Shown piece by piece: positions 1,873 through 64,000 of a DNA stretch of 64,000 nucleotides. The notes beneath the pieces are model-generated. The model worked only from the letters and a program-made list of their open reading frames with translations, ran no database searches and was not told where the DNA came from. The stretch is from Styela clava (lineage: Eukaryota), in contig NC_135252.1 of assembly GCF_964204865.1 (NCBI RefSeq), positions 22,568,001-22,632,000 of the forward strand. The letters run 5' to 3'. A program made the position numbers and the translations under genes. Position 1 is the stretch's first letter. The number at the start of each line of letters is the position of its first letter.

Positions 1873-8016
<6,144 letters not shown>

Positions 8017-19300: not shown

Positions 19301-20834
19301 CTGGGTTTTGTTTAATCCATGTTTCTGTCCTGTCACATTTGCCCATGATCAATTTTTTGTCTGCAGGCTCCAATTTTAATTCAGGATTTTCAATATCAAT
19401 TTTTACGTACTTAACGTATTCAGAAAGCAGGTTTTTGTCTCCTCCAATCTTTGTATTATCTGCATTATGTTTTATGCTTAAATTCTGAAACATAAATACA
19501 TTTTTTCTAAATAGACAGATGGAATGAATGCAAACAATGTAAAAGTTCTTTTTTTAAAATGAATCAAAAAAGAATTAAGAATGCCCACCACCTCATCCGG
19601 GGCAATACCGAGCCGAAAACAACATAAAACAGCATCCTACATACCAGCGGCTTTGTGTACATGGGTTTTTTTGCGGGAAAATGCATTTACTTACTTGGTA
19701 TGTAACGTACAGTCTATTGAAACATTAAACAAAGTCTTTCTCAAACTATGCATACCTTGTTTTTCCCCCATAATTGTTTTAATACTTCAGAATATACATT
19801 CCAAATACTTTCAAATGTTGACTGCAGCTTTACGTGTGAGGAATCCTTCGAATTAAAATAAATGTAATTTATTTTTTCAGTTAGAAATTTGGTTACTGAG
19901 TCCAAATTTGGATATATTTTTATTTTGTTTATATATATTTTTAATGCCATATTAAGCAGTCTCAATCAAAAGATTTATAAAACTAAAATACCTGAAATTT
20001 CATTCAATTTGGGACAGTCTGCTCAAATTCTTAATGTTGCAACTGGCATTAAATAAATTGCATATAATCTCACAAGGTTTCTTAAAACTTCCTCTCCGTT
20101 TGTGCACAAGTCAATCAGCATTGTTGAATCGTCCGAGTTGAAATCATATTTTTTTGTCTTGACTGCATTTCTGACATGCTCTATGTACTTTTTCAGCTTG
20201 TCTCTTGCTTTCTTTTCTTCTTCACATTCCTGGACATAACATATGTATGATTTTGTATAGATGAAATGCCTATTTAAAAAAAAATGTAAAAATACATATG
20301 CTAATTAGCTCACCTTTATTAGTCGGAAGATTTCATTTTTTTTGTTTGTATATACCTCCTCTTCTTCATCCTTAAAAATAAAAATATAGCCCAGGATAAG
20401 TAATATAAGTAGTAAAAAAACGTTAACATAATTGCACTGAAGTGATATTTTTACGTATAATAGTCAAACCTTTGGAATGGTAGAACGTTTATGTATTATG
20501 AAAGTTAAAATACAATTTCGATTATGAAATATTCAATATATTGTTGTCTGAACCACAACAATTTCCCGGATGAATTCAAATTTTGCAATTACTTTTGAAC
20601 AACAATTTATCTTAATGTTCACAATTTTAGTATTACTATACTTACTCGATGGTTTTCAATCCACTCCAACATGTCATTGCACTTTTCTGATATTTTATTT
20701 TTGTGTGTTTTCGATAACTCCAAGCATGGAATATTTTGTATTTGGCCATATATCAACGTTTCCAAATTATTTCTTACTTCATCTTGCAGCTGCATTTTTA
20801 TATCATTTTCGTCAAATTTCTTGTTTTCATCAAT
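16375..20834 (-). repeat. Coding tandem array of four lid modules in gene B
   Basis: [22 protein letters not shown]; [22 protein letters not shown]; [23 protein letters not shown]; [23 protein letters not shown]. Each is followed by a short helical phase-0 exon (e.g. [22 protein letters not shown]). Confidence 0.82.
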
Positions 20835-23800: not shown

Positions 23801-26800
23801 AAAGTATGAATTTGCTTGCTTATAACGTGCATAAGTTATTTTCATAATCTTGCAGTTGTGGGTTTTTTTGATATTATAACTAGTGATATAGCTGCATAAG
23901 AATACAATATTAACATTCGTTTTGTGCAATAGAGCTTCTTTTAGGCCATTGTCGAGTTGAACTATAATACTTAGATCTATTCAACAAAACAAAACAATAA
24001 ACACAATACACTTACTGAGCCTGAAATGCCACAGATAAATTACGTTTTAGCTTTTCACATGAGTTTTTTAGACGAATTAAATTCCTTTTTTCTTCGGTTT
24101 TGATATTGAACTCTTTACCAAAATGTTGAATCAGTTCATAATCTATACTCTCGCCTAGAAAAAAGATGAAAAATTTAATAATAATAATTTACAATTTAAA
24201 CAAATTGTAAATTAATTATAAAAATCTGAGCAAAATGCCCGACTGTCTAAATCAGGGTTTCACAAAATTTTTGGGCCGCTGAACCCTGTATATAAACAAG
24301 AAAACAATCTCGATTTTCAAAATCGGTTTTGTTTTATATAATATATCACGAACACATTCTTATCTGACAATATTTATCAAATATATTTTTGTTTTCACAC
24401 TAAACCGCGTGTGTTTAATTGTTACAAATACCTCCTAGACTGCAGTCTCCATATGACCAAACTATTTGTATAAGTGGGCCATGTATTGTGGCCAAGCTTA
24501 TATCCAATGACCCTCCTCCAAAGTCCAAAATAAATATTTTTTTCTCCTGATTTGCCTGCAATATTGAAAACAAGAATATTAAAATTTAAAGATTAATTAT
24601 CATACCTAGCAAAGCTAAATTTGTTTTAGTTAAATTTCACCATTTTTTCTTCCCTGTTTTAGCAAATTGAAGCAGAAATGCTGCCAATATTACTAAATAA
24701 TGTAAAAAGATGTTAGTGGTATTACCCTATTCATATCGATAACACGCAATTTATATTTTATATGATAACATGGCTATGATAACAAGGCCTATACAATTGA
24801 AATATTATCATATTTTAAAAATAAATTTAAATTTCGTAATTCTTTATCATGACTAAATAGGACTATTAATTGCGGATTCCTTCAGCTAACAATTTGTGAG
24901 ATGTATATGTTCTGTCTACAAAGTTTTACATTTTGTGTAAGAGCAAAATTAAAAACATTCAATAAAGTTTGAATGTTAATGCCTGGTAAATTCAACTAGG
25001 ATAATGAAATTTAAAAAATCCAAAAGAGATATCTTTCAAATAATTTAATGAACGGTTTAGATGTTTAATTTAATCTTTGTAGTATTCATTCGCTAAAATG
25101 TAAACGGGAATAAGCTCATATTCATTTCATGATATTAATAAAGTTGGAAACAATCAAAAAATGTTAAGTAAGGTTAACTATAAAAACATATCAAACCTGC
25201 CCGTCAAATGCATAAGCAAGTGCAGCAGCCGCCGAATCAGAGATCAATTTAATGTCTTCAAAACCTGCAATTTCCCCAGCATTTAAGGTAGCTTGACGTT
25301 GTGCATTGCTAAAACTTGAAGGAACGGAAATAACTGCTCTTTTCACTGATGCATTTAGATGCGATTCTGATAACTTCCTCATCCTTTCTATAATCATGGC
25401 GATAACTTGTTCGGGATGTAACGTCTGTGTTTCAGTTTTTTTTTCATAAGATAACTGTAACAAATTTATTTGTCATTTTTTCATTATAATATGTTTGGTT
25501 ATTCAATCCAAAATATTTATAGAACAATGTTTATCCGTTTTCAGATGGAGGAATTGTCGTAATTTAATCTTATACCACCATGAAATATAATGATTACAAT
25601 TTTGTGATTTTAACTGTATAATAAGAAAGGTTTTGCATATTACTTAGAAATGGTTGAACATCTTTTTATCAAATTATGTGTATAAACTTTTGACTCAATT
25701 TATCTGCTGTATAATTGTAGAAAGTCAAATTTAAGAAACAAATAAAAATTTCAAAAATGATTTGAACAAAAATCATATATGAGTCATTGTCCAAATATTG
25801 GTTTACAATCGATTGACGTAAAATCCTCATCGTTATGACAACCAAACTAAAAATAAAATGATTATATTTGGATGATAAGCCCACCGGAATCTTAATTTGA
25901 TGGGCTTCATTTCCAGTTATCGGGTAGCCGACCATTATTTGAATATTATTCACAACTGGATCATCTGTCAATCTTCCAGCAAGCTGCTTTACATCTGCAA
26001 GAATATTTAAATAAATAAAGACGCGAGAATAGAAATATTAAATTATATTTTCAATGGCCTGCAAACGTAAAAGGAAAACAAAATTGAAGCTAAAAAATAT
26101 CTTTTTTTTTTGGAATGAAATTCACGAGAGAAGTTTGAATAAACGATCTCAATATTGTATTTAAATTGCATAGCTAAGCAAAGTATGATACAGCTGTTTT
26201 AACTGTTTAAAACTAATCGGCCATGACAAAAATATTATTTACAGATAAAAAATTGATAGCAATTGAAACAAATTAAAAATAGATCGACTGTTAAAAATGA
26301 AAGACAAATATGTCGTGTTATCTAATCTTAAGAAACGTTCTAAAAATAACACTTCGTATTACATACGTTTTTAGCATTGTTACACAAGCATGTATAAAAA
26401 AACATCGAAAAACGTCGGAACCCTTTCTTACTATCTCAATACAATCTTTTACAAAGACAGCCTGTGAGAATTGGATTGCTGAGATTTTAGAGTGTATTAG
26501 ATATATTGTACCCATTCAAGCGAAACATTAGATTCATTTCAAATCTAATAAAAAGTATTTATAGTTATCTTTTAAATTGTCCAAGCTGCCCAAGTTTGGC
26601 ATTAAGTGTGTAAGATCAGCTCGAATTAGACAAAAACATTACATATCTACAAATATGAATACAATAAATTTTCACACATAAAATGGGTTGTCGAGGAGCT
26701 AATTAGTAAGTTTTAAAAATATATCTTACTGTAAAAGGTGTTGTCTGGATTAATTGGTGCTTGATGCTTTGCAGATTCTCCAAACAGACGCTCATCATCG

Positions 26801-27218
26801 GTAAAAGCAACGTACGCTGGTGTTAGTCGATTTTCGTGCTCATTTGGGATGATCTCAACCTAGGAAAATGGAATCTATATAAAACTATACAATGTATATA
26901 CTTATCGCAAAATATCAAAATGCCATATAAAGCCTTATAAAAAACATAAACATAATATATAGCATGAAAATAAAATATTAAATAAAAAAATACTACAAAA
27001 ATTGCTTATCAAAATAAAAATAAAATGAAACTACAAATGATGATAAACGTTACAATTTAAATATATTGACAAAAGATATATTAATTTGGCAATGTTTCTG
27101 GAGCCGGTTTAAACGTAAAGTAAATATCTAAGAAATCTTATACCTTTCCATTTATTAATGCACCGACACATACAAAATTCGTCCCAAAGTCGATTCCTAT
27201 GGCTATATCTTTACTCAT
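16375..27218 (-). CDS. Non-canonical Hsp70-family protein B (~830 aa): divergent ATPase domain, eroded SBD-beta, four tandem lid (SBD-alpha) repeats
   Basis: Exons: 27218-27144, 26859-26730, 25994-25885, 25454-25197, 24555-24432, 24154-24016, 23241-23094, 22885-22721, 22305-22174, 21180-21004, then lid pairs 20834-20646/20370-20314, 20229-20074/19845-19756, 19484-19302/18557-18465, 16739-16587/16479-16375. The last exon may instead splice at 16390 to a terminal exon 15955-15926. Motifs [48 protein letters not shown]. No stops or frameshifts in the model. Confidence 0.85.
16974..17700 (-). mobile_element. LINE (CR1/L2-group) 3' end fragment in intron of gene B
   Basis: Minus strand ends AAAATAAACTACTGATACTGATACTG (polyA signal plus short tandem tail), preceded by a stem-loop-like CTCGATAGCCATTACTGGTTTATCGCG. 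5' boundary approximate. Confidence 0.55.
22481..22693. mobile_element. Degenerate hAT MITE
   Basis: CAG...GCAGCCCGCGGGCCAAACTCGGCCC ... TGGCCCTCCGG...ACTGCTG, typical hAT subterminal GGCCC motifs; TSD degraded. Confidence 0.5.
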
Positions 27219-30628: not shown

Positions 30629-43779
<13,151 letters not shown>

Positions 43780-47091: not shown

Positions 47092-50000
47092 ATGGCGGCA
47101 ATTGGAATTGACCTCGGTACAACATTTTCTTGCGTTGCTATTTGCAAGAATGGAATAGTGAGTATAAGATTATTTTTTCGGCGCGTACTTCAAAAAGTCA
47201 AAATCTTGTCTTCAGATTTTCATCACTAGGAGTTCTACAATAAAACTCAGCGTACTTCTTTTCTTTCTTATATATGATTGCTCTACTTCAAACATTTTAT
47301 TTTAGTATACCTCTTCGATATCTTCTATACCTCACTATTTTGGTCAGCCTTTTACATACACCAATATACTTTTAATTCTTCGTACAAAAAAGGTGGTGCA
47401 ACGAAGGAGGTTACTCTAACATCTTTCAGAATTTAAATTCGGAGCACTTTTTATCACGTATGGGGTTATTTATTTTGTCACGTCCGCACTAGCTATCTGC
47501 TCAGCTGAGACCTCAGCAGTGGCCATGATGGTCATTTGTATCAATAAATTTTAACATCCATCTTATGTTTCGTTTTTATTTCTTAATTTTTCCCTTCTAT
47601 TGACATTTTATTTACTGCCTATATACCAATTCCAGGTGCAAATTATACCCAATGAACACGAAAAACGGTTGACACCAGCATATGTGGCTTTTACCGAAGA
47701 GGAAAGATTATTCGGAGACTCCGCAAAACATCAAGCTCCGTTGAACCTAGCAAATACTGTATATAGTAAGTGCAACATTGAAAATAAAACAAACAATGAA
47801 TTATGTTTGAATTATTACCTAATGACGGATTTTATTTTGAACTTTTTTTTCTGAAAATCAAAAAAAGAAATAATATAACAGCACTGATCTTTTCAATAAC
47901 TACAAAAGGATTATACTCGAGTGCAGAAAATATGGTTTAAATGTGTACGTAATTTCTTACTATATCGATATTTCAATTGCGTCTTCGTTTGATCAACGTC
48001 GTATACAGGGTGTCTCAAAAGTAAGTATACACTTTTAATTTTGATTTGCTTTTCAGGTACTCAGCATAGAGCGTTCATTTTTTTCAGGGAACATAGTATA
48101 GATAACCAGTAAAATTTAGATATTGTTTGTATTTTTCAACAACCCACAAAATGACAAGGAGACTAAGCCCAAAAATGAAAAGCAAATTGGTGATTGGCAA
48201 GAAGCATGTAAATCAGTAAGGCAAACTTAGCTCCTCTTTAACAGAGAATTTGAAACTGATTCAGCTTCCTCAAAGCATCCGCTGCATGGTTTTCTTGATC
48301 TTACAGATCAAGTTTCCATGAATTGCGTAATTCTTTGTCGTGAAGTGCTGATTGCCTCAATGTTTTATATGCTTCTTGCCGAACGGCAATTTTCACCCCA
48401 TTTCTTGGGTCAATCTTCTTGTCATTCTGTGGGTTGTTGAAAAATGCAAACAATACCTAAATTTTACTACTTATCCACTATGTTTCCTGAAAAAATGAAC
48501 GCTCTAGGATGAGTACCTGGGAAGCTAATCAAAATTAAAAGTGTATACTTGTTTTTGAGACACCTTGTATAGAGAGCCTAAACAATAAATAATTGGGTCG
48601 ATTCGGAAAACAAACATTTGTAACGATTAAATTCCGTTAGTGTGAAGGAATCCAATGAGTACACCAATTGAAAGTAAGAGTACACTCAAAATAATAATAA
48701 AAATCCTAAGAAGGTCTTATTGCACGCAGTCTCAATTCGTTGTGTAAACGGTAAAGCTTTCAAATACCATTTAAATTAATAAAGATGAATTTTGCGGTGA
48801 TAATCGTTACCAATGCGCGATGAACTAAACTAGTATTTCAGGTCCACCGGTAGCACAGTCCATTTTATGTCTCCAGCAGAGATTTTGTTATTTGTTGATG
48901 TACCCAACATTTTTAGTGACTACATTTTATTTTGCCACGTTGTTTCACCTAAATAAAAATACTTTGGAATTATCTTTTGATTACTCACCATCACCAACCA
49001 CAGTGGCGTGACTGTTATGTAATTTATTTTCATCTTAAATCTGAAAGCGGATGATAGATTTTCACGCTATCGAAGATATTACGTTCTGATGAATTTCCTT
49101 TGGATCATCTCTGCAAATTATATTATTCATAAAAACACGTTTCTATTTTGTTACCAGTTAATACATGTTTACTGTTTTTGCTCCACTGTGTAAATAGACT
49201 TTTTTAAGTCTATTTAAAACATTTACGAAATTAACGAAAATGAGATGTACCTACTTATGCTGCAAATATGGCTTAGTCAGGGATAACTTCCACTTTTGAA
49301 ATCATTAGCTAAGTTTTTTATTTTTAAAGCTGATATTTTAAACCAATTCTTTTTATACTTCTACAGACATCAAACATATAATCGGAAGGTTATATAACGA
49401 TCAAAAATTGAAACAAGACAAAAAATATTTGGGATATACTATCGAACCTGACAGAAATGGATATTGCCAAATACCAGTAAGAAATTTTGCGATTCTCTGA
49501 TATCAATTTTTTGTAATATCGAATAGAATCTGCTTGAAATAAATGTAGATTATATTGTCATTGTAAAATACATATTCTATTGTCGTTTTAAAAAGCCTCC
49601 ATTTTGGCATCACTGAGAAATTAGGAAAAGATGAAAACCTTTCCGTATTTATTAGTTACCATAATGCTTGACGATGCATTAATTTAATGATTTTTGAGGT
49701 TATATTACCTAGTTGTCCTTTAGCGCAAAAAGTTTTCTCTCTCAATACCTGGCTTTGTCATTGCGCTCAATTTCAGGTATAAGTTCAATTTTTTATTCTA
49801 GAATTCGGGAATTTTTATTTGAAGAAGCATAACAAATGTAAAGTTTTTGTTTGCATATTGGACAAACGAGCCAAATTTTTCTACCTACCAAATTTTCAGG
49901 CTTTTAGATTCCCATATCTACTTGAATTTTTAGATTTGATTCAAAATTAAGTAAATATTGCTACAATTCTCTGGACATAGCATCAAATTTATTACTTTAG

Positions 50001-53000
50001 GATCTATCATTTATATTGACCTAAAAATCACTTTCAATATTAAAAGTGAAAAACTCGCATACTGGTATTTCAAAATTTCACTTTTCCAGATATCTAGCTA
50101 CGGAAAGCAAGTAGAATTATATCCAGAACAAATTACGGCAATGACAATTGTTAAAATGAAAGACATAGCAAAAGCACACGTTGAGGAAACAGTATCTAGA
50201 GCTGTTATTTCCGTCCCCGGATTTTTTAACGAGGCACAGCGCCAGGCTACAATAAACGCTGGTAGGATGGCTGGCCTTGAAGACGTCAAGCTCATAACCG
50301 AACCAATGGCATCAGCGCTGGCATATGGGCATGATAAACAGGTTAAACAAAATGATAAACAAACAATTTTATAAAAAATTATATCAAAAAGGCAAAATAT
50401 TGTTATGTTATTAATTAATATCACACAATTTTCATTCTCGCCTAAAAATTGTAATAGCGTGTTTACTGATGATGAAATGGAAATTTTTGATTGGATTTGG
50501 TAAACAGAAATTTTCAAAATTATAAATTTTATTTTTTATATTAAATATATGTCATTTCTTCAAAACTTCAAAGGCAATGATAATTTATAGTGAAATAAAC
50601 CATAATGTATAATACAAAATTTGGAAACGCTTTTAAGGATATCAATTGCAATTTTTTATTGACACACATTTTTTCTCTTTCAGCTAAAAACAATTGAAAA
50701 CATTTTAATTTTTGATTGTGGTGGAGGGACAACCGAAATAAGTCTTGCAAAAATAACAAGCAAAGATGTTAAAATTATATCTACGTTTGGAGAAAATTTC
50801 GGGGGTCAGTTTATTTTCAAGTTGTTTGATTTTTCTTTCAATATTTTTCATTAATTTGAGCTTATTTTATGAGTATGCGAAAAAAGGCTCATAATCAAAT
50901 ATTAATAAGTTGCAAGGAGAGCGGATTAATTTAGGGTTTTCAAAAAGGATGAAGATCGCAAAAAAATACCAATGCTTTAAAATATTATTCGTCAATGAAA
51001 TTATGTTTTCCTTCTTGTTATTCGGCCATAATTTAATCGTATCCAATATATCCAATATATTTTGTTTTGTTGAATCACGATTCAGATTCAGATTCAGATT
51101 TTTATTTTCGTCGTGCATGAAATATTGTACAAACAAAATTGATCAAAATATATAACAAAACATCAATTAAAATATACTGGAATACAATATTTGCGCAATT
51201 GACGAGGAACCGCGAGAGACTACTAAAGTCATCGTGTCAGCGACACCGTGTTTGCTAAGATAAGCAGAAGACGTCAATAACATGAAATAATTAATTTTTG
51301 AAAATAGAGTGAATACAATTTGGGAAATACAAATCAAAACGACGATGGATCACAATAACCATTGTCTTGTACTAGTTACGATATTCATCAGCAAACAAAT
51401 ATGGATTATTAGAGGATAGGGTAACTTTTTTCTGTGAAAATATTTGAAAGTGATAAAGAGTTTATAAAAAAAATGCCTACATTAAAAAATAGGTTTATCG
51501 CGAAAGAATGGATTCGTTTATAATTTTTGTATTCGAAAGCTTGCGAATTATGGATCTTTTACGCAAAGCCCACGCCGCTAATGTGGAATTTGACAAAAGA
51601 AAAAGAAAAACTGTCGTGTATTTATTTTGCAGTTGCGCACAAAGTATCTCACAAAGAGTCTCTTCCTTTATTAATTTAATTGTGCGTCGACAAAAGAACA
51701 TTACTACGAAATGTTACGACCATAAAAAGTGTTTAAACTTTTGGATATCTAGTTTTGATTCGTATTTTTGCGATGTTAATAATTATACAAATTTGATATG
51801 TTCTTGCAACACCGGCTTTGCTTTATCACAATGCCACCACCAAATTTTATTTTCAAGATATCAACGTTAGAGAAATCCCTAGATCTGCTAGAGAATATCA
51901 AAACAATAATAATTGATTGTACAGTGATACCTCGATAGTCAACCAGTTCATTCGAGTCAAAAATGCTGCGGTATTCCAACTGAAATTAGGATCTCAAATA
52001 CCCGAACCGAGCGGAGCTCGCGGCCGAGAGAAATGACGCCAACCGAAAATGAGCTCGATCGATCCTGGCATGCCGTTGGAAGCTTCCGAATCGTCAATTC
52101 GTCCTAATATTAAGCGTTTAGTGAAGCAAAAATGTTTCCAAATATCACTAGGAAAAACATGTATCAAATGTTCTATTTTTATTTTATGCTGCAATATAAC
52201 ATCAAATTACCTTCAGCTGTATTGATGCAGTTGTTTATTTTTGTTGATGAAAATCAATAGATATCATGCGTGCGGGCCACTTACTCATCGGTACTCGACT
52301 GATAAAATGGCCGGCGATAGCAAATGGGTTCGCCCCACCTTGTTTTAAATGAATAATCAACATATGTGTGATAAAAAAGATATTTTAAATTTTGTATGTA
52401 TCTAGGCCAGTGGTTCCCAAACTTTTTCGAGTTGGGACCCACTATTTATTACCACAGCTTATGGCGACCCATTTAAAGTTTTATGACATAACACAGAACA
52501 CAGCAATGGCTAATCATCGCTAAACTATCGTGTTTCCTCGAAAATAAGACCTGGACTGAAAATAAGACATAATTTGAATTTTGAAAATGATTTTAATTAA
52601 ACCCTACCTTTGAAATTTAAAATGTGTGGGAGAGGAAGGGTTCAATGACCTGAGTGAGATAAGGTGAAGATTGCACCACTATTCAAGATTACCACAATTA
52701 TGATATTTGACACTTGATTTTTGTATAGAAAATACAAATAGAAACAATGGATGTCGAATTTTATATAATGTTTATTGAAAAATCTCGTGATCTTCTACAA
52801 TGTAAGGTCATTTTTGATAAATGAACACAAAAGACCTCTTCCAAAGAAACATAATGTTATTCTTCAAAAGAAAATAAATCTAAATCCTATTTAAATTTAG
52901 GGTGAAACACAGTAAGAAGTGCTGTCCAGTGTACAAAACTGCTGTGCGTAAAAAAGCCACATGGTCATTCTTTGTGTAGCAAATTTTTGTTCCTTTGAGA

Positions 53001-56000
53001 AGATCGTAAAAAGTACAGATTAGAATTTCACAGACAGAACTTTCACATATAAGAATTTAAATTCAATTTAATTTAATTGGTTTTTTTGAAGATTTGCGTA
53101 TTCGAGTCGCCACCGATCCTAAAAACCAGTGTAATTAATCAAAGCTTTCCACATCTTTTCACGACCCATTAAGATTCCTTTTGCGACCCACCAGTGGGTT
53201 GCGACCCATAGTTTGGGAACCGCTGATCTAGGCTATGTGTATTATTTCTTTAGACTATGTGCATAGACACAACTGATAAAAAGAACATTGGCTCATTTAT
53301 CTTAGTCTTTTCAAACAGGTGATGATTTTGACAACCGATTGGTTCTGAAGTACGGTAAAGACTTGGGAATTGAAATTCACGATAAAAAAGCAATAACTAG
53401 ACTGAGAAACGCTTGCGAAAAAGCAAAACAAAGTCTGTCAGCAGCTTCTCGCGCTCGGTAAGCTCATTTATTGCTAATAATTGCTAACAAAAAATGAATT
53501 TTATGATTGGTGCTTGTCCAAATACTTGAAGCATGTAATGATTTTAAGATCTCATTCATAAAGTCTGATAAATATTGGTCCCAATAGTAGGTAACAAACG
53601 AAATGCAAATTCAATTAGGTATTCTCAATGTTTTGCAAGAAATATTTCTGTTCTAGTTTATGTCTGATATATGTCAAACAATTTAAATGCGATTTTGTTA
53701 TTAGGAAACATCATTGATATTTTAAAATCCTTCAGACATAATAAAGCTGAATTGTAATTTATTTTAATTTTATTTTTCAATTAATTCAACTTTTTTATGT
53801 GCAGGATAAAAGTTGACAATTTATACAATAATGAGCCGTTTGAAAGCACTATAACACGAGAAGATTTTGACAAAATAAACGAGGAATTGTTTGAAAAAGT
53901 TACTTCCATTGTTCAAAAAATGTCGAAGTTTTTGACAAAGAATCGTCATAAGGTTTCCTTTAGTGTTCGTCATTCTTTATTTAAAAGAATGTTTATAATT
54001 TTAATCGAAATAAATAATTAATTTTAGAATTTTCATTGCTATATAATTCTATCGCTGTTAAACGCTAATATTAGAGAAAGTTGCCTCCGACGTTTGTAAT
54101 CATACTTCTAAGAATAGCTTACCAGATCTATATTTTTTATTATAAATATATTAGGTTGATGAAATAATTCTCATCGGAGGATCAACGCGTATCCCCAATA
54201 TACGGAACATTCTTCAGAATTCATTTAACGTCAAACACTTGAACAGAACAATTAACCCAGATGAAGCTGTTGCATACGGTGCAGCAGTACATGCGGCTAA
54301 TGAATTTACTAACTGCAAGGTATTTTATTGGTTAATAGTTTTGTTGCGAAAATAAGCAGAGTATACAGACTTGTCCACGGAACGTATTTTTCCGTCTCAT
54401 TCCGTCTAATACTGTGGCAATTTTTACCCGTTCCACTCATCCCCATCAATGAAACGTTTCGTATAGAATTCCTATTTCCAACTCTGGAAAATCACCTAAA
54501 TAAGGAATCTATGTATAGGTGTCCCAACACAAAATAAAAATAAACAATAGATGTAAACAGCTCTTGGGAAATAAAAAAACAACTGAATTTGACGTTTAAA
54601 TTGCCATGAGAAGTAAAATGTCTGCTGTCCCATTCCATCTCATGAAAGACGACAATCCATGGCCATGTTTGAGAATACATATATATATAGTATTACGCTA
54701 AACATATAGTTAACAAATGTTGTATAGTGGAATGCCGTTTTGAAATAATTCCAGAAATAAAATATCGTATTTGTGAAAATTGTTTTAAAATTTGTTTGCA
54801 AATATTGATTTTTAAATTATTCTTCTGTAACTCTTACTTAGTCTTTTGTACTTTAGAAAATAGTCCAGGTTCGAGAGATGACTGCTTTGAATAATAGTAA
54901 TACAGTACCTGAAAATAAAAAACGTAAAATAGAAGAGACGAGTCAAGCAAAATTGACGGAAATGGTATGTAAATGGGCTACTCAAGTATAAAGATAGTTA
55001 CGACGAGTAAATAATGTTTATGTTAAGTTCTGAAATATTTTACATGTTGTAATGTTTTGGTGGTGCTCCCGAAGTATGTGCACCAAGATGGCTCACAACT
55101 TGAACATACTATGTGTACCAGGTTTGGGTTCAGGTTGTGCGCCATCTTGGTGCACATGTTTTCGAAGCGCCGTTTTGGTTAGTATTAGCCATTAATATTT
55201 CTGAAATTTGAAAAATATTTTTTTTCTTAAAACTACATTTTCACAATTTTGAAAAGACAGACGGATATGTTTTATTTATTTTGCCGAATCAGAATATTAG
55301 CAAACTATATAGTTCTCCTGGTATACCGTGTACTAAACCGAAACATTAATAGCGAAGGGGTTAGTCTGATAGGTTAACGCAATGAAAACCGCTTTTATCT
55401 ATGACAATTTTTCTTTACCTCAAATATTTGCCCTTGTTTCAGTTGCAAACCTATTCCTTGCTTGTTGAATAATTCATCTTTTTGTTTTTCTCCAGACTCA
55501 AAAAGTGCTGGAGTTTGATAAACATGACGAAATGCTCAGGGAAGAAAGTAATGCACGGAATAATCTCGAGAAATACGCTTACAGTACCAAGAAAAAGGTT
55601 CACACAGATAAATACAAAGACAAGTTATCTGCTGAAGACAAAAAAGGAATTTTCCATGAATGTGATCTAGCGATAACATGGCTTGAAACGAATAAAGTAA
55701 GTATTCAAATGATTCACAACATGCTTACTAATGCTTTCAATATACGCCGAAAGTTTTTATTTATAAAATTATGCCGCAGAGAATTTCTTGTATTTTACTT
55801 TACGTTGGCTTGAAGCAGAGTTCATTAATCTATTGTCGTCAGAAGCATGGAATTTGTACAAATCGCGGTGTTTGGTAACATGGTTTAGAGGTATAAAATG
55901 TTTTTTTTTTTATTTTGAAGCGGAAAAAAGTAGTAGAAAAAAAACTTGAAGAACTGAAGCAATATTGCGAAGCGATATTCGATGGAAAGTCAGCAACAAA

Positions 56001-59000
56001 GGTCGAAATTAGATTATTTTTAGTGCTTGATTCCCTACATTACTATTATAACATACGTTTTTTCATAGTGGTAAAATGTGTAAAAATTGATTCTACGTTG
56101 TTGATTTAAGTTGGCACCATTAAAAAATCGAAAACTAAAAATTATTTAATCGACAATATTCCTATTGGCAGGATAAGAATTACATAATTGGTTACGACCA
56201 CCTAACTGTTTCTGAGTGATTAGGTAATCGGAGAATTACAGAATCCTCGACTGCGAATTAATTTAATCGTGTCATTTTTAAATATATTGATCTTCACAAA
56301 ACATGAACTTATTTTAAATCCATGATATATATGTTGATTACATTTGAATTTGATGGTAGATGTTACTCTTTCAGACGCTTATTACAGTTTTTATTTTTTC
56401 AGTTTTAGCAACATCGAAGCAAATTTAGTTTTTTATATAAATAATTTTTAAATAATTTTTCTAATTCAGCAAGTGGTAATGAGGTCACCATATGTGAGAT
56501 CGGAGAAAAGTCCAAAAGGTATCGTTACAGGAAAAATGCAGGTGAGATTACAACGTGCAAACAATATTTGTCGTCTTAGATCACTGGTTCTCAACCAGTG
56601 GCCATGGCCCACCGCTGGGCTATAGATACATTTTCATGTGGGACACAAGCATTTTACAAAAATGTTTATTGAAAAGTTTAGTTTCATTTGTGTTAATATA
56701 GTCAAATTTTAATTGTAGTTGCAATGAATGATGCTGCTGCTTTTCATTATAATTATGAAAGTTAAAGTATTTATTTTTGCGAAAATAGTCTTGATTTTCT
56801 TGTAGTTTTTCCCTTGCATGAGAAAGCTAGTGGGCCACAGAATGTTTATGCAACAAAAGTGGGCCACGAAAGAAAAAAGGTTGAAACACTCCCGTAGTGT
56901 TTGTTCCAGTTAGGTCATTATTTCATTCCGATATTTCTTAATAGTTCTATTACGAGTTCGGGGATGGTCTGTGTTAGCAAAGTACATATACCCCTTTCTA
57001 TAAGTTTCAGTCTCTTTACAAAACTTGATGTGAGGCAGGTGACCAAAGTAGTTATACCTCCATATTGGTACACGCACTTCTGGAGCGCCCTTCATATAAT
57101 TTTGGGAAAAGCAGAACTTTATATTTGACCCTTTATAAATCTTTACCAAACAGTCAACTCGTGCAAATAAATCTACTGAACAAGAACTGGTGAAATTTAA
57201 CGCAATCAATGATCTTCATAAATATGTTCAAAGTGTTCAATCCCATTCAATATTCGGAAAACTTACGGAATTTATGACGTCGGACATCAAAAAGAAAATA
57301 GATATCAAATGTCGTGAAATAGAGCAGTTTTTTAACGCAAGCCAGGTATGTTTTCCTCGCTATATCACCACTACCCTTCTAATGTATTTATTTTACATGG
57401 GATAATGGCGTTTATTCGCTGCAAATATGATTGTTGACTCTTATAAATAATTTAAAAAGTAATATAATTATGGAAAAATATATATTCCTATTTATTGTTT
57501 TGTGTTAAATGTTTAGGATATGGAAGTCAAAAAGATAAATGGCAAAAAAATGGAATTAGAAATAATTGTAGAAAGTATACTGCACAGATTGCAGCATAAC
57601 CAGGTGAATAGCATTTTAAATAGTTTATTTTTAACCTTGTCGCTCTCTTCATATGTGCTCAAGCAGTTTCCTGTTATTAACAAAGATATAAAACACCTTA
57701 TAAATATATGAGAAACGTTTATAGAATTCAACAAAGAAAGTTTCCACCTATTTTTATTATCAAAATTTTTCCATAAATATTTATCTCAATATTATGTGTT
57801 CCAAATCATAAATGAAATTATTTCTGAAATGTAGCAAATGTACGTTAGTTTATTTAATTTCGTCCGAATGGTTTTGATTTATAGATTATTCTTTACCGAT
57901 CTTTAAAACAAATACATCTGAGAAACAATTGAAGCATAGAAAATCTTTAAAATACCGTATTTTCCGGCCAATAAGTCTACCCAGTGAATAAGACGAGGCC
58001 CGTTTTTGAGCCTGAAAAATGGATTTTCGCATATATTCTGCCGATAAGACGGTTAGTAAAATCGCATCAACATCGTAATCTCAAATTACCATGCAGAGGC
58101 TTTTGGGCGGTCGCCGCCTTTGCGCATTGGTTAAAATAGCCTATAATAACTTTTTCTTGTAGCGTAATATTCAATCCATAACAATTACGAGAATTCGAAC
58201 TGTCTTTCAATTTAATTGTGTTCAACCCAACTCGCGTTTGCGTCCACCATATAAGAACATTACCTATCTAAAATAACACGGCGATGATAAAAACGTGGGG
58301 ATGCTATCGCCAAAGGTATTTGGTATTTTATGAATTGAATAATAAGGCGACACCAAAAAAATTATCATACTCGCCTAATAAGACAACCCCCAAAATCAGG
58401 CCAAAAATTTGGGTTATTCGCCGGGAAATACGGTATAGTTCCGAAAATAAATTTTATATATGTTTATATAATCTTATCACAGGAAGTCGACAAAAAGAAG
58501 AACGACGAGTACGTAAAACTTCTCAAATATATTTCTTATCTCAGGAAGCCAGAGGAAGGACAAAAACCAGGCAATTTTACATTTCAGTACATGGATGACA
58601 TTAAATCCGCGTGCGATGAAACAGAACAATGGCTTAAAAGTAATTATGTACGTTTCATTCAAGTCCGATAGTACTAGAAGACCGTTGTAATAATTTTGAA
58701 TAGGTTACCATTATGCCCAAATTTATCTAATGACAATTCGCATTTTTTGGGGCGAGAGGTGCCCTAGAGTGAAATCTGTTTATTGTTATTTCAAATAATA
58801 GTAGTCATTAGTTATCGATTTTAATCGGTAAGTATGTTGATAGGTATTTGTCTGTATGTCTGTCTGTTTGTCTGTTAGATGCACGCGATATCTCACGAAA
58901 GCTAGATTGAATCTGCTCCAGATTTTGCATGTGCATTCATCTTATCTCGGACCAGAAGCCTATTGATTTTGGGCGAATTATGTCGTATAATTAGCGAGTT

Positions 59001-62000
59001 ATCAATCAATTATTGATATAGTGATCTAGATTTTTGTAAAGCGAGAGAATTTTGAGACCCGCCGAGTGTGTGTGTGCGATGCGCAGTGCGCAAGTTACAA
59101 GAGCGGATGAATCGAAACTGCAGTTTCTGTTTTGGGGGATCCCCCAACTATCGATCGATAAGTCTTCGGTTTCCAACCAATATTCTCGTTCACTATTCAG
59201 TTTTTATCTGTACATGTTGTATGAAATCGTAAATGCCACCGTACAAAAATATTTGTATCTCATGACTAGTTTTAAATCTAAAATTACATGCAGTTATGAT
59301 GAGACATTGCCATAAGCAATGCAAAAAAAATCGATGTTAGGTACTTCAATTGTTCAAGCTTTAAATTATTGTTTTAGAATTCGGTATCAGTGGAAATAAT
59401 CAAGTCCAGATACACGGAATTTCAATACTGTGTTGATAAAATCAAACGGAGATATGAAGAATTCGAAATGGTTAGAGTTATGATGATGAATATCTTGAAA
59501 AATAGCTCATACAAGACGAATTGAAACAAATACATTATTGGGTCATCACTTCAACGATTTCCGTAATTTTTTCTGAAGTGACAAGAGGTTGAATATTTGA
59601 TGTTCATTTTTTGTTATGATACTCAATCCATAACAACAGCCTAAAATTTCGATCTAAATTTTTTGCAATGGAGGCGCGCCTTGTATTTCTTTTCTTTAGT
59701 TCATGTTCATTCGCGCCCCATCATATGAAAATATTTATATTGTTTAAATGTTTTGGTTTTGAATCAAATGAGTCTTTTATTACAGAAAGAAAGGGACAAA
59801 GAAGTGAAACGTGCCGAAGTTTACAGTAGTTTCAAAAAGTTCACCCGTAAAGTCATAAAATATACTAATTCCGAAAAAGGTAAAAACGATATAGATGATG
59901 AATATCTAAGAAATATGGAACATCAATGTGTAGAAACAACAAATTGGATTGAAAAGAATTACGTAAGTAATAATTTCACTAGGAAAAATAATTTGTATTC
60001 CAAAATTAATTTTATTTTATATTAAACTTTATTCACGATAACTAATTATTTTATTCAACATCAAAAATTTTAAACAAAAATAAGTAATAGGATATGTTTG
60101 TGTATTTTTTGTGATATTAAAGTATGTTTATAATTATTTTCAGCATGTAATATCACCAAGAAAAATGAATTCTGAAGAACTTAAACTACGAACAAAGATA
60201 ACTGAAATCTTGAGAGGATTGAAAGCTAGCCAAGAGGTAAGAACCAAAATTTTTTAATACCGCAACGTGAACGATAATACCCAATAATAAATTTATTTAG
60301 TATTGATAAATTTCCTACAGTCTGCTCACCATATTTCTAAGTATACCTTTACAGTATATAGACCTATAATAATTGGATGAAATAACAGCAAAAAAACATA
60401 TATTTTTTACACGAAGTGGTAAATACTGAGAGAATTGCAATTTTTTATTATTCAACTATAAAATAATTGTTATTTTTTTTATGAATTTAAAAGATCAAAT
60501 GTTTGTAAAGAAACCTATAACGAGATTATCGGTCGGAGACCGAAGACGTATCGATCGACCGCGAAAAAAAATAAAAAAAAATAATTAATTAATTAATTAA
60601 TAACTCTCTAATTATACGATATAATTGATCCAAAATCAATAGGCTCCTGGTCCGAGATATGATGAATGCACATGCAAAATTTAGAGCAGACCTTGCTTTC
60701 GTGAGATATAGCGTGCATCTAACAGACAATCAAACAGACAAAGAGACAAATAACTATCAACATACTTACCGATCTTAAAAATGATAAGTAATAATATTAG
60801 TCGTACTATAAACTAGTCGTCTACTATGAGGAAAATTCAAAATTTATTCCTTTCTTTTGGGACGGTTTGATGAATGCACATGCAAAATTTAGAGCAGATT
60901 CAACCTCGTTTTCGTGAGATATCGCGTGCATCTAACAGACAATCAAACAGACAAATACCTATCCACATACCTACCGATCTAAAAAATGATAAGTAATAAT
61001 ATTAGTCGTACTATAAACTAGTCGTCTACTTTGTGGAAAATTCAAAATTTATTCCTTTCTTTTGGGACGGTTTGATCACGGTTGTTTGCAAGATATGAAT
61101 GTGGCAGTAGTCCGTGACAGTATAGATTTCAGATGGAAAGATAAATTTCGAAAAAAGATATCATGACCTGAAAATATCTTTCTAAGAATTTTCAGAGTTA
61201 TTAAAACTGATATCGTATCTGTTTTTCATTTGCCTTCAATAGAATTATTTTCTAAAAAAGAGATTTTTGTATTCCATGAAAACTTCAGATGTTCACGGCA
61301 GAAATGCAACTTCGTAATCAAGAATACAAGAAATTAATGGATTACATCGAAAATATTTTGGACTTCGTTGCTACTAAAAAGGGGAATGACAACATAACTA
61401 ATGAGTATCTTCTAAAAATAAATCAACGATGCACTGTAACGCGAGAATTGTTGGAGAAATATGGCGTACGAACAATTTATAAATCTTGTTTAAGTCTGAT
61501 TCTAGATTTTGTTACTTTGATTTAAAAAAATTATGATTATTGTTTTTTGTTTCAAAACAAAACGGAATCGATAAACATAAACCACATTCCTGTAACTTTT
61601 TGCGAGAAAAAATTATTAATAATTTCCTTTATCCTTTATAATGGTGTATATGTAAATATGTAAATAAAATTGTTTATAATATGAAAAGTTACGCATATTT
61701 GGTGAAATATGTTTCAGGATAAACTTACCAGAAACGAAATTACTGTAAAAGCAGATCAACTTGAATTAAAAATTAATGAAATCTGGACAAAAATGCAGGA
61801 AAGAAAACAGGTAAAATACTAATGCAGCAATGCACTAAAGTTGATTTAAAACACAGTTGTTTTCAAACAAACACAAATTTTATTAAATTTTGCTAGAATT
61901 AAGTTATCACAGCAATATTTCCGAATAAATGATTGGAGAAAGGAGTTTTGGTAATTGAATTGCATAATTTACAGCAATTGCTGCATCTGCAAACTTGTAG

Positions 62001-64000
62001 GGTTAGGTTGAGTGACTTGCTTTTTTTTCACAAAGTTAAGAATAAATAGTATTATTATCATTCGTAGATAGCAACTGATGAAGAAAAACGGTGTCGTGAG
62101 GCATATGATAAATTAACAACCTATATTAATGGCATGATCAAATATATTGATTCCGAACGAGAGAACGACTGTATATCTGTACAATATTCTGAAAAAGTAA
62201 AGCGTCAGAATTTGGAGTGGAAAAAGTGGCTTGATACTAATTACGTAAATATTACTTATTTTTCTTATATTATTTCTTTTAAAAAAATAGGGTTATCACA
62301 ACTTTCCGACTATGAAACTTGTCTTTTATTATTATATTATTATGACGTTCTATTTAAAAATATTATAATTTTTATTATTTCCCAGTGATAACGATTGGCA
62401 TACAAATCACCATTATTTTTCGACGTTTTTTTTTTTAGAATTATCTCACTTCGGACGAAATATTTTCAGAAAAATCCAGATTAGAATCGGAAAATAGTAA
62501 AGTTCTAATTGACATAAAAGCAAGAAAAAAGGTAATTTTTAAATCTTCTTAAGGTGTGAAATAAAAGTTTAATACAGATCAAAATTGTTTAAATTTAATT
62601 TGTCTCACGCTTATCAAATATTTATTCAATAAATGAGACACATATATACAATATTAACACAATAATTAAACTTGCAAAACTGGCATCCATTTTCGTTTCC
62701 ATTTTCAATAGCAAATTGTTTTTTTTGGTATTTCTAAAACTTCCACTATTTGGATTATAAAGCAACCAAGAAAATTTTATAAAGAAATTTATATTATTCA
62801 AATATAATGTAATATATGATATTTTTGTACTTATAAATATTAAATATGAACAAAGATAACATAAGATATTTTATACAAAATTATATTTAATGCAAACAAT
62901 GTGGTTATTACAATTATATAAACTGTATATTCTTATGATTTGTGAAGGCTGAGATGGCTGAAAAATTAGCCAAAATCAAAAACAAAACGGCTATAAACAA
63001 TTTTATGAAGTGTATATCTGACGTGGAATCCTGTAGATATTTTTATCCGTACGAATTGAATGCGTCTGATAAAAAAGAAATTGAAGAAAAATGCAAATAT
63101 TGGAAACAGTGGCTTTCTGAATCTTCCGTAAGTTTGAGTTTTAAATTGTATAAGAATTTGTTAATATTCAAATTCAACCTAAATATACTAATTTTTCAAT
63201 TGCTAACAGAGCCCTTGTATTTTCTTTGCAAAGATATTGTGAATTTTTCAAATTATATTAAGGATTGTAACAGCCTATTATTTAATATGTTCTTTAATCT
63301 CTTGATATGTTCTTTGACTTTCGTAAATGCAATTTTATTGAACGGTTATCTTGAAATATCAAATTAAATTGATTAATTTTCAATGTCGCTTATGAAAACT
63401 CCATTAACCGTAGTTCAACCTGAAACATAATAACGTGTATTAAAAAAATACCAAAGACAATGATTGTCATCAATTATACAGAAATATTTCTCTTCGGATC
63501 ACATAGAAGCATCTCAAATTGAACTGGAAGACTTTGCTCAGATAATTTTTAACAGATTAGGTGAACGACAACAGGTAATATTCTAAATGTGTAGTACACA
63601 AATGAAAATATAAATACATCATGTCATAAATATATATTTATTTTTTATATAATTTTTCTTTTACATACATTTATATAAATAAAAAATGAGGATAAGTTTT
63701 CGTTTTCATGACTTGTAAATGTGTGGCTTATTAAAAATTAGGTTTTAAATCATGAATTTCAATATATTTTTATAATATTTTTTTGTCCATGCAATAAAAG
63801 CAATAAAATTAGATTAAAATCTGAGCTGCTAATTTTCAGCACCCGCTAACCAAAAATACTATGAGTTGAACTGTTTCTCCGAAACCAAACCAAATGAAAT
63901 ATTCCATGTTTTATTAGCTTGAAGTAAGAAAGCAACGACAAAAACAATTGAAAGAAGCAGCAAAAAATCTTGAAACTTATATTGAAGATGTTAAACAATT
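47092..64000 (+). CDS. Non-canonical Hsp70-family protein D (>1090 aa, 3'-partial): ATPase domain, SBD-beta deleted, NLS-like linker, at least 8 tandem lid repeats
   Basis: Exons: 47092-47157, 47636-47765, 49367-49476, 50090-50341, 50684-50804, 53319-53457, 53805-53952, 54155-54319, 54857-54964, 55496-55696, 55921-56001, 56470-56541, 57154-57345, 57517-57603, 58483-58647, 59378-59470, 59786-59962, 60144-60236, 61289-61465, 61718-61810, 62068-62244, 62439-62531, 62948-63127, 63482-63574, 63918->end. All GT-AG; frame open throughout. Motifs [49 protein letters not shown]. Confidence 0.88.
48006..48567. mobile_element. Tc1/mariner-family deletion derivative with ~170-bp TIRs (intron 2 of D)
   Basis: TA|CAGGGTGTCTCAAAAGTAAGTATACAC ... 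GTGTATACTTGTTTTTGAGACACCTTG|TA; relic transposase N-terminus from ~48151 ([32 protein letters not shown], frameshifted). Confidence 0.85.
51079..51300 (-). mobile_element. LINE (CR1/L2-group) 3' end fragment in intron 5 of gene D
   Basis: Minus strand AATAAAAATCTGAATCTGAATCTGAATC tail, with upstream stem-loop ACGATGACTTTAGTAGTCTCTCG. 5' boundary approximate. Confidence 0.55.
52408..53225. mobile_element. hAT (Charlie-like) MITE containing a nested pogo/Tc2-type MITE (52528-52912)
   Basis: CAGTGGTTCCCAAAC ... GTTTGGGAACCGCTG with perfect 8-bp TSD ATCTAGGC; inner TA|TCGTGTTTCCTCGAAAATAAGAC ... GGGTGAAACACAG|TA. Confidence 0.85.
55062..55171. mobile_element. Short palindromic member of the GG..CC MITE family with 8-bp TSD
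   Basis: GGTGCTCCCGAAGTATGTGCACCAAGATGG ... CCATCTTGGTGCACATGTTTTCGAAGCGCC flanked by GTTTTGGT (55054-55061, 55172-55179). Confidence 0.8.
56582..56886. mobile_element. hAT MITE, right end interrupted by GG..CC MITE
   Basis: CACTGGTTCTCAACCAGTGGCCATGGCCCAC ... AAGTGGGCCACGAAAGAAAAAAGGTTGAAA. Confidence 0.6.
56886..57089 (-). mobile_element. Copy of the GG..CC MITE family (intron of D)
   Basis: ACTCCCGTAGTGTTTGTTCCA ... TTGGTACACGCACTTCTGGAGCGCC. Confidence 0.7.
57955..58433. mobile_element. pogo/Tc2-type MITE
   Basis: TA|CCGTATTTTCCGGCCAATAAG ... TTATTCGCCGGGAAATACGG|TA; internal AATAAGAC motifs. Confidence 0.85.
58808..59190 (+). mobile_element. HINE/DINE-1-like element, copy 2 (intron of gene D)
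   Basis: TTAGTTATCGATTTTAATCGGTAAGTATG...(GTCT)n...ATCGATCGATAAGTCTTCGGTTTCCAACCAATATTCTCGTT; reverse complement of copy 1 with a longer middle. Confidence 0.72.
60519..60996 (-). mobile_element. HINE/DINE-1-like element, copy 3 (60519-60791) plus partial duplicate (60868-60996)
   Basis: Same subterminal repeats and CAGA tract as copy 1; the partial copy is part of a 208-bp tandem duplication. Confidence 0.7.

Follow-up and report, generated by a model that had tools for sequence, protein, structure and literature searches.

Hsp70 has one of the most conserved architectures in biology, and the locus described here raises the question of what an Hsp70 nucleotide-binding domain (NBD) might do when the peptide-binding β sandwich (the β part of the substrate-binding domain, SBD-beta) is missing and the helical lid (SBD-alpha) is repeated. 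The locus lies in a stretch of 64,000 nucleotides from the sea squirt Styela clava (G000:C3:22,568,001-22,632,000; the G000 genome is 377 Mb), which is called the window below. An earlier note, made from the letters of this stretch alone, had described a gene, here called gene D, that encodes an Hsp70 NBD followed by at least eight tandem lids without a peptide-binding domain. This description was upheld and extended to 10 full lids and a degenerate eleventh. Gene D almost certainly encodes one cytosolic protein, in which an Hsp70 NBD and a linker remnant are followed, without the peptide-binding sandwich, by about 11 lid bundles on continuous helices. As to its function, a regulator that docks on Hsp70 and is carried on a variable rod is our tentative reading, held at slightly less than an even chance.

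Organization of gene D

Gene D has 36 exons and 1561 codons on the forward strand, from the ATG at window position 47092 to the stop that ends at G000:C3:22,638,070. The 25 exons inside the window (47092-64000) had been said to be open with intact splice sites, and this is the case: they have GT-AG ends and 1098 codons with 0 stops. When the model was extended past the window, as the earlier note had proposed, 11 further exons were found up to the stop. Each exon from 8 to 36 begins in phase 0. Because random intron stretches are rarely stop-free (the chance is 0.018 for 177 nt and 0.135 for 93 nt), the exon chain is far above chance. A gene-prediction artefact was rejected in view of the open exons with GT-AG ends, the spliced RNA contigs, the stop-free extension and the matching protein models.

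After the NBD come a 36-residue linker remnant and ten lid units of two exons each; a Ser-rich stretch and the degenerate eleventh lid follow. The NBD (47092..54319, residues 1-377) is encoded by exons 1-4 (47092-47157, 47636-47765, 49367-49476, 50090-50341) and exons 5-8 (50684-50804, 53319-53457, 53805-53952, 54155-54319), supported by Pfam and PDB matches and by spliced contigs; no signal peptide was found ahead of it. Exon 9 (54857..54964) encodes the 36 residues, in which a remnant of the interdomain linker and the first SBD-beta strands leads directly into the beginning of lid helix A. Lid 1 (residues 414-507) is canonical-like and is encoded by exons 10-11 (55496-55696, 55921-56001). 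The 24-residue spacer of exon 12 (56470..56541), which is present in the protein models P0020 and P0152, separates the conserved head, namely the NBD and lid 1, from the variable rod. Lids 2-10 occupy residues 532-1342: lid 2 is in exons 13-14 (57154-57345, 57517-57603), lid 3 in exons 15-16 (58483-58647, 59378-59470), lid 4 in exons 17-18 (59786-59962, 60144-60236), lid 5 in exons 19-20 (61289-61465, 61718-61810), lid 6 in exons 21-22 (62068-62244, 62439-62531) and lid 7 in exons 23-24 (62948-63127, 63482-63574), and lid 8 starts in exon 25 (63918..64000, continuing to window+100). All eight lid cores quoted in the earlier note are in these exons (10, 13, 15, 17, 19, 21, 23 and 25). Past the window, exons 25-30 encode lids 8-10, exons 31-34 encode a Ser/Lys-rich stretch that is disordered (residues 1343-1473, 27% Ser), and exons 35-36 encode lid 11 and the C-terminal RRWYY. 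A second exon repeat was seen in exons 31-34 (L002:3149-5374), where exons 32-34 are three alike exons of 84-96 nt with alike donor sites.

One gene or two

RefSeq gives two genes at the locus on the same assembly, a feature that, like the variability of the rod between assemblies, lies beyond what the earlier note saw. P0020 consists of residues 1-531 of gene D and 10 codons, followed by a stop, from an alternative last exon on the forward strand (56945..56977) inside a dispersed repeat of intron 12. P0001 is identical to residues 572-1561 and starts in the middle of lid 2; therefore, all junctions from exon 13 on agree. If this annotation is taken as it stands, the locus makes a short protein of NBD and lid 1 and a separate rod protein, and the fusion is a minor form. 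Among the RNA contigs listed, none spans lid 2 to the 3' end. In addition, the scan found no NBD exon ahead of five lid arrays (X2, X4-X7; C3 20.30-20.53 Mb). These points weigh against a single gene product.

We nevertheless consider two separate products very unlikely. The split is bridged by record 13 of run X7, in which exons 4, 6, 7, 8 and 13 are on one spliced contig, joining NBD exons to lid 2; its distance between exons 8 and 13 is 477 nt, compared with 462 in the gene D model. A near-identical second copy of exons 6-14 was not found in G000 (one full match; the other 43 are intron repeats), so that this contig is best read as gene D. P0152, from another assembly, reads through in one uninterrupted chain from the NBD to lid 10, and its NBD is 96-100% identical to that of gene D. 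The splice from exon 12 to exon 13 has a canonical donor and acceptor and keeps the phase, whereas the last exon of P0020 lies in a dispersed repeat and P0001 lacks the beginning of a lid. In runs X1 and X2, a 654-nt contig from exon 10 seems to reach exon 13, as judged by equal depth values. The RNA status of runs X1, X2, X7 and X9 was guessed, and they were counted as RNA only where contigs skip introns; bins 59348-59931 and 61100-61683, which are without cover in all 4 runs, were not used as evidence. Thus, the earlier claim of one gene holds for the joining of the NBD to the lids, with the RefSeq split against it and no listed contig spanning lid 2 to the 3' end.

Two side observations belong here. 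The run X7 contig carries 15 surplus bases between exons 8 and 13 (window 54319-57154) and, over 186 bases of exon 13, differs from the model at 32. The repeat in intron 12 supplies an acceptor and a stop, which makes a head-only isoform ending after lid 1 possible, and the region of the alternative exon shows high read depth and loose contig ends. A short isoform may exist beside the fused product.

Nucleotide-binding domain and the missing β sandwich

The Pfam HSP70 family matches residues 3-370 of gene D with an E value of 7.6e-120, and the best PDB match of the NBD is HSPA1A (7kw7, E 2.8e-110); the best 60 of 125 PDB matches are all Hsp70, Hsc70 or BiP. The residues compared with HSPA1A are those with a catalytic role. 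According to the sequence alignment, D10, T13, K71, E175, D199 and T204 are kept as D7, T10, K68, E173, D197 and T202, and R171 and D206 are changed to Lys and Glu, respectively.

On the Pfam HSP70 family (599 positions), exon 8 covers positions 327-373 and exon 10 covers 515-570, with merely 36 residues of gene D between them. This means that the β sandwich is missing. An SBD-beta exon was not found in gene D by tblastn, which did find one in the neighbouring genes A, C and E, and the run X7 contig has no room for it between exons 8 and 13. One end of exon 9 aligns to the linker and the first strands, and the other end to helix A; the sandwich thus looks deleted from inside. Exon 9 opens with a degenerate stretch that appears to be what is left of the conserved hydrophobic interdomain linker. 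Gene D cannot run a peptide-binding cycle.

By its defining features, gene D is not a canonical Hsp70, an Hsp110 or an HSPA13. Canonical Hsp70 (HSPA1A, HSPA8) has the same type of NBD, lid 1 is similar to the lid of HSPA1A (E 9e-9), and the canonical neighbour gene E has identical intron positions. However, canonical Hsp70 has a single lid and ends in EEVD, whereas gene D has about 11 lids, ends in RRWYY, and has neither EEVD nor SBD-beta. The likeness to Hsp110 and Grp170 lies in the predicted docking, in which the NBD and a lid helix would contact subdomain IIB of another Hsp70, and for Hsp110 also in the rod, whose top fold match is the Sse1 bundle: gene D may, on these models, work like Hsp110. 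Hsp110 differs in having a β sandwich, with insertions, and one bundle. The lineage of the NBD, as seen from the best 60 PDB matches, points away from Hsp110 (the trees were made without Hsp110 rows). Since the NBD ranks with canonical Hsp70, a nucleotide exchange role, if there is one, would have arisen by convergence. HSPA13/STCH (Hsp70-13) is described, in an excerpt of PMC12692333, as an NBD without a peptide-binding domain; there, however, the whole substrate-binding domain including the lid is absent, whereas in gene D the lid is present and repeated.

The repeats as Hsp70 lids and the shape of the rod

The repeats are only 12-34% identical to lid 1, and their identity as lids was seen mainly by profile. 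With a profile of eight gene D repeats (leaving out lids 1 and 8, the two most canonical), Hsp70 C-terminal domains were the top 9 of 31 PDB matches (best E 3.5e-6), and with a profile built on 44 exons, Hsp70 lids were the top 16 of 21. Among single exons, that of lid 1 is the only gene D lid exon with a Pfam HSP70 match (E 2e-4); none of the 10 other single lid exons matched this family, and P0001 alone found its best Hsp70 lid among PDB sequences at merely E 0.35.

An AlphaFold2 model of P0001 was made from an 84-row alignment, 10-20 rows deep across most repeats. It has a mean predicted local distance difference test (pLDDT) value of 74 and a predicted template modelling (pTM) score of 0.33, with disorder at 782-904. 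Each unit consists of a short helix and a helix of 45-59 residues, and the long helix continues into the next bundle (28-74, 113-167, 208-258, 293-351, 383-436, 474-529 and 565-619 of P0001; broken at 672-687). The spectrin-like chain of three-helix bundles that the earlier note had imagined is therefore what the model gives, although the pTM of 0.33 makes the shape of the rod unsure and weighs against it.

The P0001 model was compared with 48,161 chains. The Sse1 bundle matched lid 7 best (Z 11.2, rmsd 4.5, 92 aligned), and Ssa1 SBD-alpha (Z 10.1, rmsd 3.3, 92 aligned), the human HSP70 lid (Z 9.2, rmsd 1.9, 74 aligned) and BiP (Z 9.1, rmsd 1.9, 77 aligned) were also found. Lid bundles of the Hsp70 family are four of the best eight fold matches, and unrelated bundles are mixed in at Z 9-10. 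Because Z values below 13 are common for helical bundles, it is the profile that carries weight for the lid identity. Foldseek found nothing at E up to 0.001 with the whole 990-residue model; its local matches were Hsp70 lids (probability 0.96-0.99) and beta-spectrin (0.41). The best ESM Atlas score, 0.83 with HYOU1_C clusters, is a lead only, and alignment-free folding (pLDDT 43) was not used. By profile and fold, the gene D repeats are Hsp70 lids, as the earlier note had recognized, and the chain models as spectrin-like. The lid of the canonical neighbour E is divided into the same pair of phase-0 exons, which explains how the lid unit could be duplicated in frame.

As in spectrin rods, the modelled three-helix bundles are chained by a long helix passing between units. 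The gene D unit differs in its length of about 90 residues and in its Hsp70-lid ancestry, and no Pfam spectrin family matched the gene D repeat exons above the cut-off (Spectrin_5, E 0.043, in 1 of 13 exons). No Pfam family at all was found on P0003, P0004 and P0005. Tandem Hsp70-lid-like units also form a rod in villin-headpiece proteins of Naegleria and Acrasis (17 stretches in P0008), which the databases carry as hypothetical proteins, are of unrelated lineage and have armadillo repeats and a villin headpiece in place of the NBD.

Such a rod might act alone, as an ATP-gated scaffold or holdase in which the lids are a spacer or a multi-lid binder of unfolded proteins and no Hsp70 partner takes part. 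The spectrin-like chain in the model agrees with this, and so do the retained equivalents of D10, T13, K71, E175, D199 and T204 in gene D and the amoebal examples, where the lids lie between the armadillo repeats and the headpiece (Naegleria) or precede the headpiece (Acrasis). Clustered S. clava Hsp70 genes were reported to be cold-induced, in an excerpt of PMC7540406 that does not tell which genes these are. However, gene D has no actin-binding or membrane domain, and a rod acting alone would not account for the way in which, as described below, the face predicted to bind Hsp70 is conserved specifically within the clade; we regard it as quite unlikely. A fixed ruler fits poorly to arrays of 10-25 repeats.

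Predicted docking on Hsp70

The docking of gene D on Hsp70 was modelled with ESMFold2, using residues 1-507 and the NBD of the canonical Hsp70 C17 (L048). The model scored 0.77, and the best of 3 controls 0.00; contacts agree by at least 93% between runs, and the pLDDT of the partner is at least 83. Among microbial pairs, the pass mark lets through 51 of 78 that are solved and 2 of 108 that are mismatched; among eukaryotic pairs, it lets through 71 of 105 solved ones and 2 of 126 unrelated ones. The surest modelled contacts are formed by N435, E438 and their neighbours in lid 1 with residues 274-301 of the partner, on the flank of subdomain IIB. N435 and E438 probably occupy the positions of Sse1 N572 and E575. 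Sse1 attaches to Hsp70 at the same flank of subdomain IIB (PMC4753570, in excerpt), and the excerpt of PMC7463752 adds nothing further on the interface. The N-x-x-E pattern (N435-x-x-E438 in gene D) is present in 8 of 8 first lids and in 0 of 92 later lids, in a count that left out P0012, P0007, P0008, P0011, P0053 and C17.

The part of the docking case that is independent of the complex model seems to be the conservation of the interface in the alignments. In the gene D clade, the 45 predicted interface positions are conserved more than the rest of the head in three comparisons: 34/45 vs 239/440 (76 vs 54%, p 0.007), 31/45 vs 202/443 (69 vs 46%, p 0.004) and 27/45 vs 188/447 (60 vs 42%, p 0.027). 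As a qualification, this enrichment is absent when gene D is compared with canonical Hsp70 (17/45 vs 192/444; 38 vs 43%).

Nucleotide-binding motifs are kept across the gene D clade, and hydrolysis residues are lost in several members. The T204 equivalent is Lys in genes X3 and X8 and in P0037, and the E175 equivalent is changed in P0167, P0037, P0018 and P0029. The loss of these residues in relatives that keep the nucleotide loops fits a platform that docks with ATP bound better than it fits a foldase that runs through cycles. Sse1 that is ATPase-dead but binds ATP is functional, according to the same excerpt (PMC4753570).

Several observations weigh against docking. The rows behind the three interface comparisons have ancestry in common, so these are not independent tests, and the other multi-lid clade shows little or no enrichment (21/45 vs 191/442, 19/45 vs 182/445 and 19/45 vs 195/445). 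P0012, outside the count above, has N-x-x-E in a later lid, and the canonical Hsp70 lid of the C17 row has it as well; the pattern could serve the folding of lid 1 onto its own NBD, or homodimers. The pass of the complex may reflect memory of the model, because like complexes have been solved (Sse1-Hsp70, 3d2e; BiP-ATP2, 6asy; ATP-state Hsp70 dimers), and close cousins of true partners passed in 10 of 12 cases in the tool's own test.

Gene D itself probably arose when the phase-0 two-exon lid module was duplicated in tandem and SBD-beta was then lost. With the reservations given above, the docking mechanism would be as follows. The conserved head might be a minimal Hsp110-like module: in the ATP state it would dock face to face on the NBD of a canonical Hsp70, with the lid 1 helix 428-442 gripping subdomain IIB. 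The docked head might then act as a nucleotide exchange factor, a brake or a recruiter for ordinary cellular Hsp70s. Lids 2-11 would form a spacer and display rod, roughly 40-45 nm long if straight, as estimated from the helix lengths, and this rod might place the recruited Hsp70 at a site chosen by its variable surfaces and the conserved C-terminal motif. The earlier note had left the role among a scaffold, a ruler, a multivalent holdase and an exchange factor or sensor; docking like that of an exchange factor is now the best supported of the four.

The C-terminal RRWYY (L002:7053-7070; L012:2162-2320) is common to gene D, gene X7 and P0005 despite the low identity of their rods. It fits the HbYX pattern as given in an excerpt of PMC10641518, which is a lead only.

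Variation between assemblies and selection

When gene D is compared with P0152, exons 1-11 are 96-100% identical and exon 12 is 75% identical; identity is 76-84% in exons 13-14 (lid 2) and only 32-71% in exons 15-26 (lids 3-8). The boundary between the conserved and the variable part falls directly after lid 1. By comparison, the lids of gene B are 94.9% identical between assemblies, and P0037, unlike the gene D rod, is mostly 86-100% identical per exon. Within the lids, positions of the core are retained more often than the remaining ones (66/87 vs 223/368, p 0.009).

This variability might point to a polymorphic cytosolic sensor or decoy in a conflict between host and microbes, in which the lids imitate the Hsp70 lid of the host or attach to foreign proteins that vary, with the NBD as the switch. 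Such a role, which is compatible with docking on Hsp70, would account for a rod with a different repeat set in P0152 and P0002 and with its core positions kept, and for the tandem cluster with arrays of 4 to at least 25 lids. Nevertheless, we find it unlikely. The ratio of non-synonymous to synonymous change (dN/dS) in paralog lids gives no sign above 1. Among the RNA differences listed, non-synonymous ones lean toward exon 13 (6/8) over exons 1-9 (4/12) without significance (p 0.17), gene D has no immune domain, and recombination among paralogs, instead of old alleles, could lie behind P0152 and P0002. Less probable again is a combination of ideas, in which these proteins would be polymorphic cytosolic receptors or adaptors with a convergent Hsp110-like docking head, a hypervariable rod of 10-25 lids for variable, possibly microbial, targets, and an HbYX-like tail possibly handing the targets to the proteasome or to PUB-domain proteins.

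The dN/dS values of the lids come from paralogs, not from gene D itself. By the Nei-Gojobori method, reciprocal-best paralog lid exons gave 0.40-0.52 in 7 of 8 pairs, with bootstrap upper bounds of 0.55-0.89; the pair X4-X6 has 0 synonymous differences and gave no estimate. The NBD of X8-X3 gave 0.26 (0.13-0.59). The pair X3-X5 is weak, because it involves a block that could be an assembly artefact: G000:C3:20,350,733-20,425,748 and 20,431,778-20,507,003 form a tandem duplication with an 81-kb offset and 99.7-99.9% identity, which could be either very recent or artefactual. The purifying selection argued for in the earlier note thus fits the head and the bundle cores, and less so the highly variable rod as a whole.

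These values also bear on whether the rod is a mere by-product, that is, symmetric exons that duplicate easily and are tolerated while adding nothing. The phase-0 two-exon unit, the recent segmental duplications and a rod far less conserved than the head are what this would produce. However, dN/dS is below 1 in all 7 informative paralog pairs, repeats so distant from lid 1 stay open and keep a hydrophobic core, and the C-terminal motif is common to distant paralogs; a by-product is therefore very unlikely.

Two further models vary between assemblies. P0018 and its G000 counterpart (L053-L054, C3 22.746-22.761 Mb) are 41-89% identical per exon. P0012 maps partly to C3 19.33 Mb (L056; 93-96%) and partly to 22.39 Mb (L050; 38-69%), as if recombined.

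Related genes and other lid-repeat proteins

Gene D is a member of a subfamily, which the earlier note had missed; other proteins with an NBD and several lids, for which it had proposed a proteome search, include P0152, P0169 and P0053. About 50 intron-rich NBD loci are on C3, nearly all at 19.2-22.75 Mb, and this is a lower bound, 73 of 483 candidates having been scored. The published S. clava expansion has 42 Hsp70 genes, 32 of them on one chromosome, with the clustered ones cold-induced; the excerpt of PMC7540406 is silent on domain layout. In and beside the window, genes A (about 1933-8016, reverse strand), C (31596-43779, reverse) and E (L003:1028-9341, forward) are intron-rich Hsp70 genes with SBD-beta, one lid and the same exon layout. 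Gene B (16390-26860, reverse; P0167) has 4 lids, a degenerate SBD-beta and altered E175/T204 equivalents, and is an intermediate stage towards gene D.

Some SBD-beta is present in the multi-lid members P0037, P0014, P0018 and P0012 and absent from genes X3 and X8. Gene X8 (G000:C3:20,585,718-20,536,919, reverse strand; L012-L017) has an NBD with Lys at the T204 position, a 24-residue linker exon, a duplicated lid 1 and at least 25 lid exons, and ends in RRWY; its open frame is not proven along the whole length. P0169, from another assembly, is a sister model of gene D with an NBD, a 24-residue linker and 22 lids. The lid arrays X2 and X4-X7 (L009-L012, L029-L044) have 12-21 units each, and RefSeq calls some NBD-less arrays genes (P0003, P0004, P0151).

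NBD trees group gene D most closely with X3/X8 (94/94), and these form a clade with gene B and P0037 (100/99). The canonical rows are separated (98/96) from every multi-lid S. clava row and from P0029. With the canonical genes as root, the lids seem to have multiplied first and SBD-beta to have been lost later. For P0029, nothing close was seen in G000 (its exons match at 23-65%), and it probably comes from another species or a divergent haplotype. P0053, a MetaClust gene prediction with an NBD, no SBD-beta and 3 lids, groups with canonical cytosolic Hsp70 (100/99) and is an independent case of this architecture. A single origin of gene D, P0169 and P0053 was rejected (approximately unbiased test, p 5.6e-86, for a group chosen after the first tree). 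P0007, also from MetaClust, has SBD-beta and 6 lids, which are 65% alike those of P0053.

A profile search of 1.84 billion proteins gave 248 matches at E up to 0.001. The best multi-stretch matches (30 looked up of 150 listed) are S. clava models, headpiece proteins of Naegleria and Acrasis, and unnamed records; P0015 and P0031 were dropped as non-lid (0 domains). Database labels on lid-repeat proteins are uncharacterized, myosin-like or centrosomal-like. In P0008, P0013, P0019 and P0025, from Naegleria lovaniensis, Acrasis kona and other records, a villin headpiece closes the run of lid-like repeats. P0011 (ENA/Logan, contigs up to 101 kb) has 2948 residues, 12-15 lid-like units, no Pfam family and 17 cluster members; 14 pattern matches to viral contigs were seen, 0 of them confirmed.

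Implications

No description of an NBD with tandem lids was found in the literature, in a search that covered few subscription papers. The words 'lid', 'tandem', 'repeat' and 'ascidian' do not occur once in a survey of non-canonical Hsp70s of metazoans from 2025 (PMC12692333), and the excerpt of PMC8195603 merely lists HSP70 domains in oyster immune proteins. As far as searched, the gene D architecture is real, apparently undescribed, and a family rather than an oddity. It has been seen in a narrow range of taxa, and with the current annotation it is not fully certain which isoform is the main one.

The lid is separable from the peptide-binding sandwich and has been reused as a repeat module several independent times, in the sea squirt, in the MetaClust case and in Naegleria and Acrasis. 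The published Hsp70 expansion of S. clava should be read again, since several of its genes cannot be foldases. The head of gene D is a natural minimal construct of NBD and lid for asking whether an exchange factor of the Hsp110 type needs more. If the variation of the rod is adaptive, these genes would be a new polymorphic gene family in a chordate. The retained NBD, the lost peptide grip and the repeated lid suggest a regulator that docks on ordinary Hsp70 rather than a folding machine.

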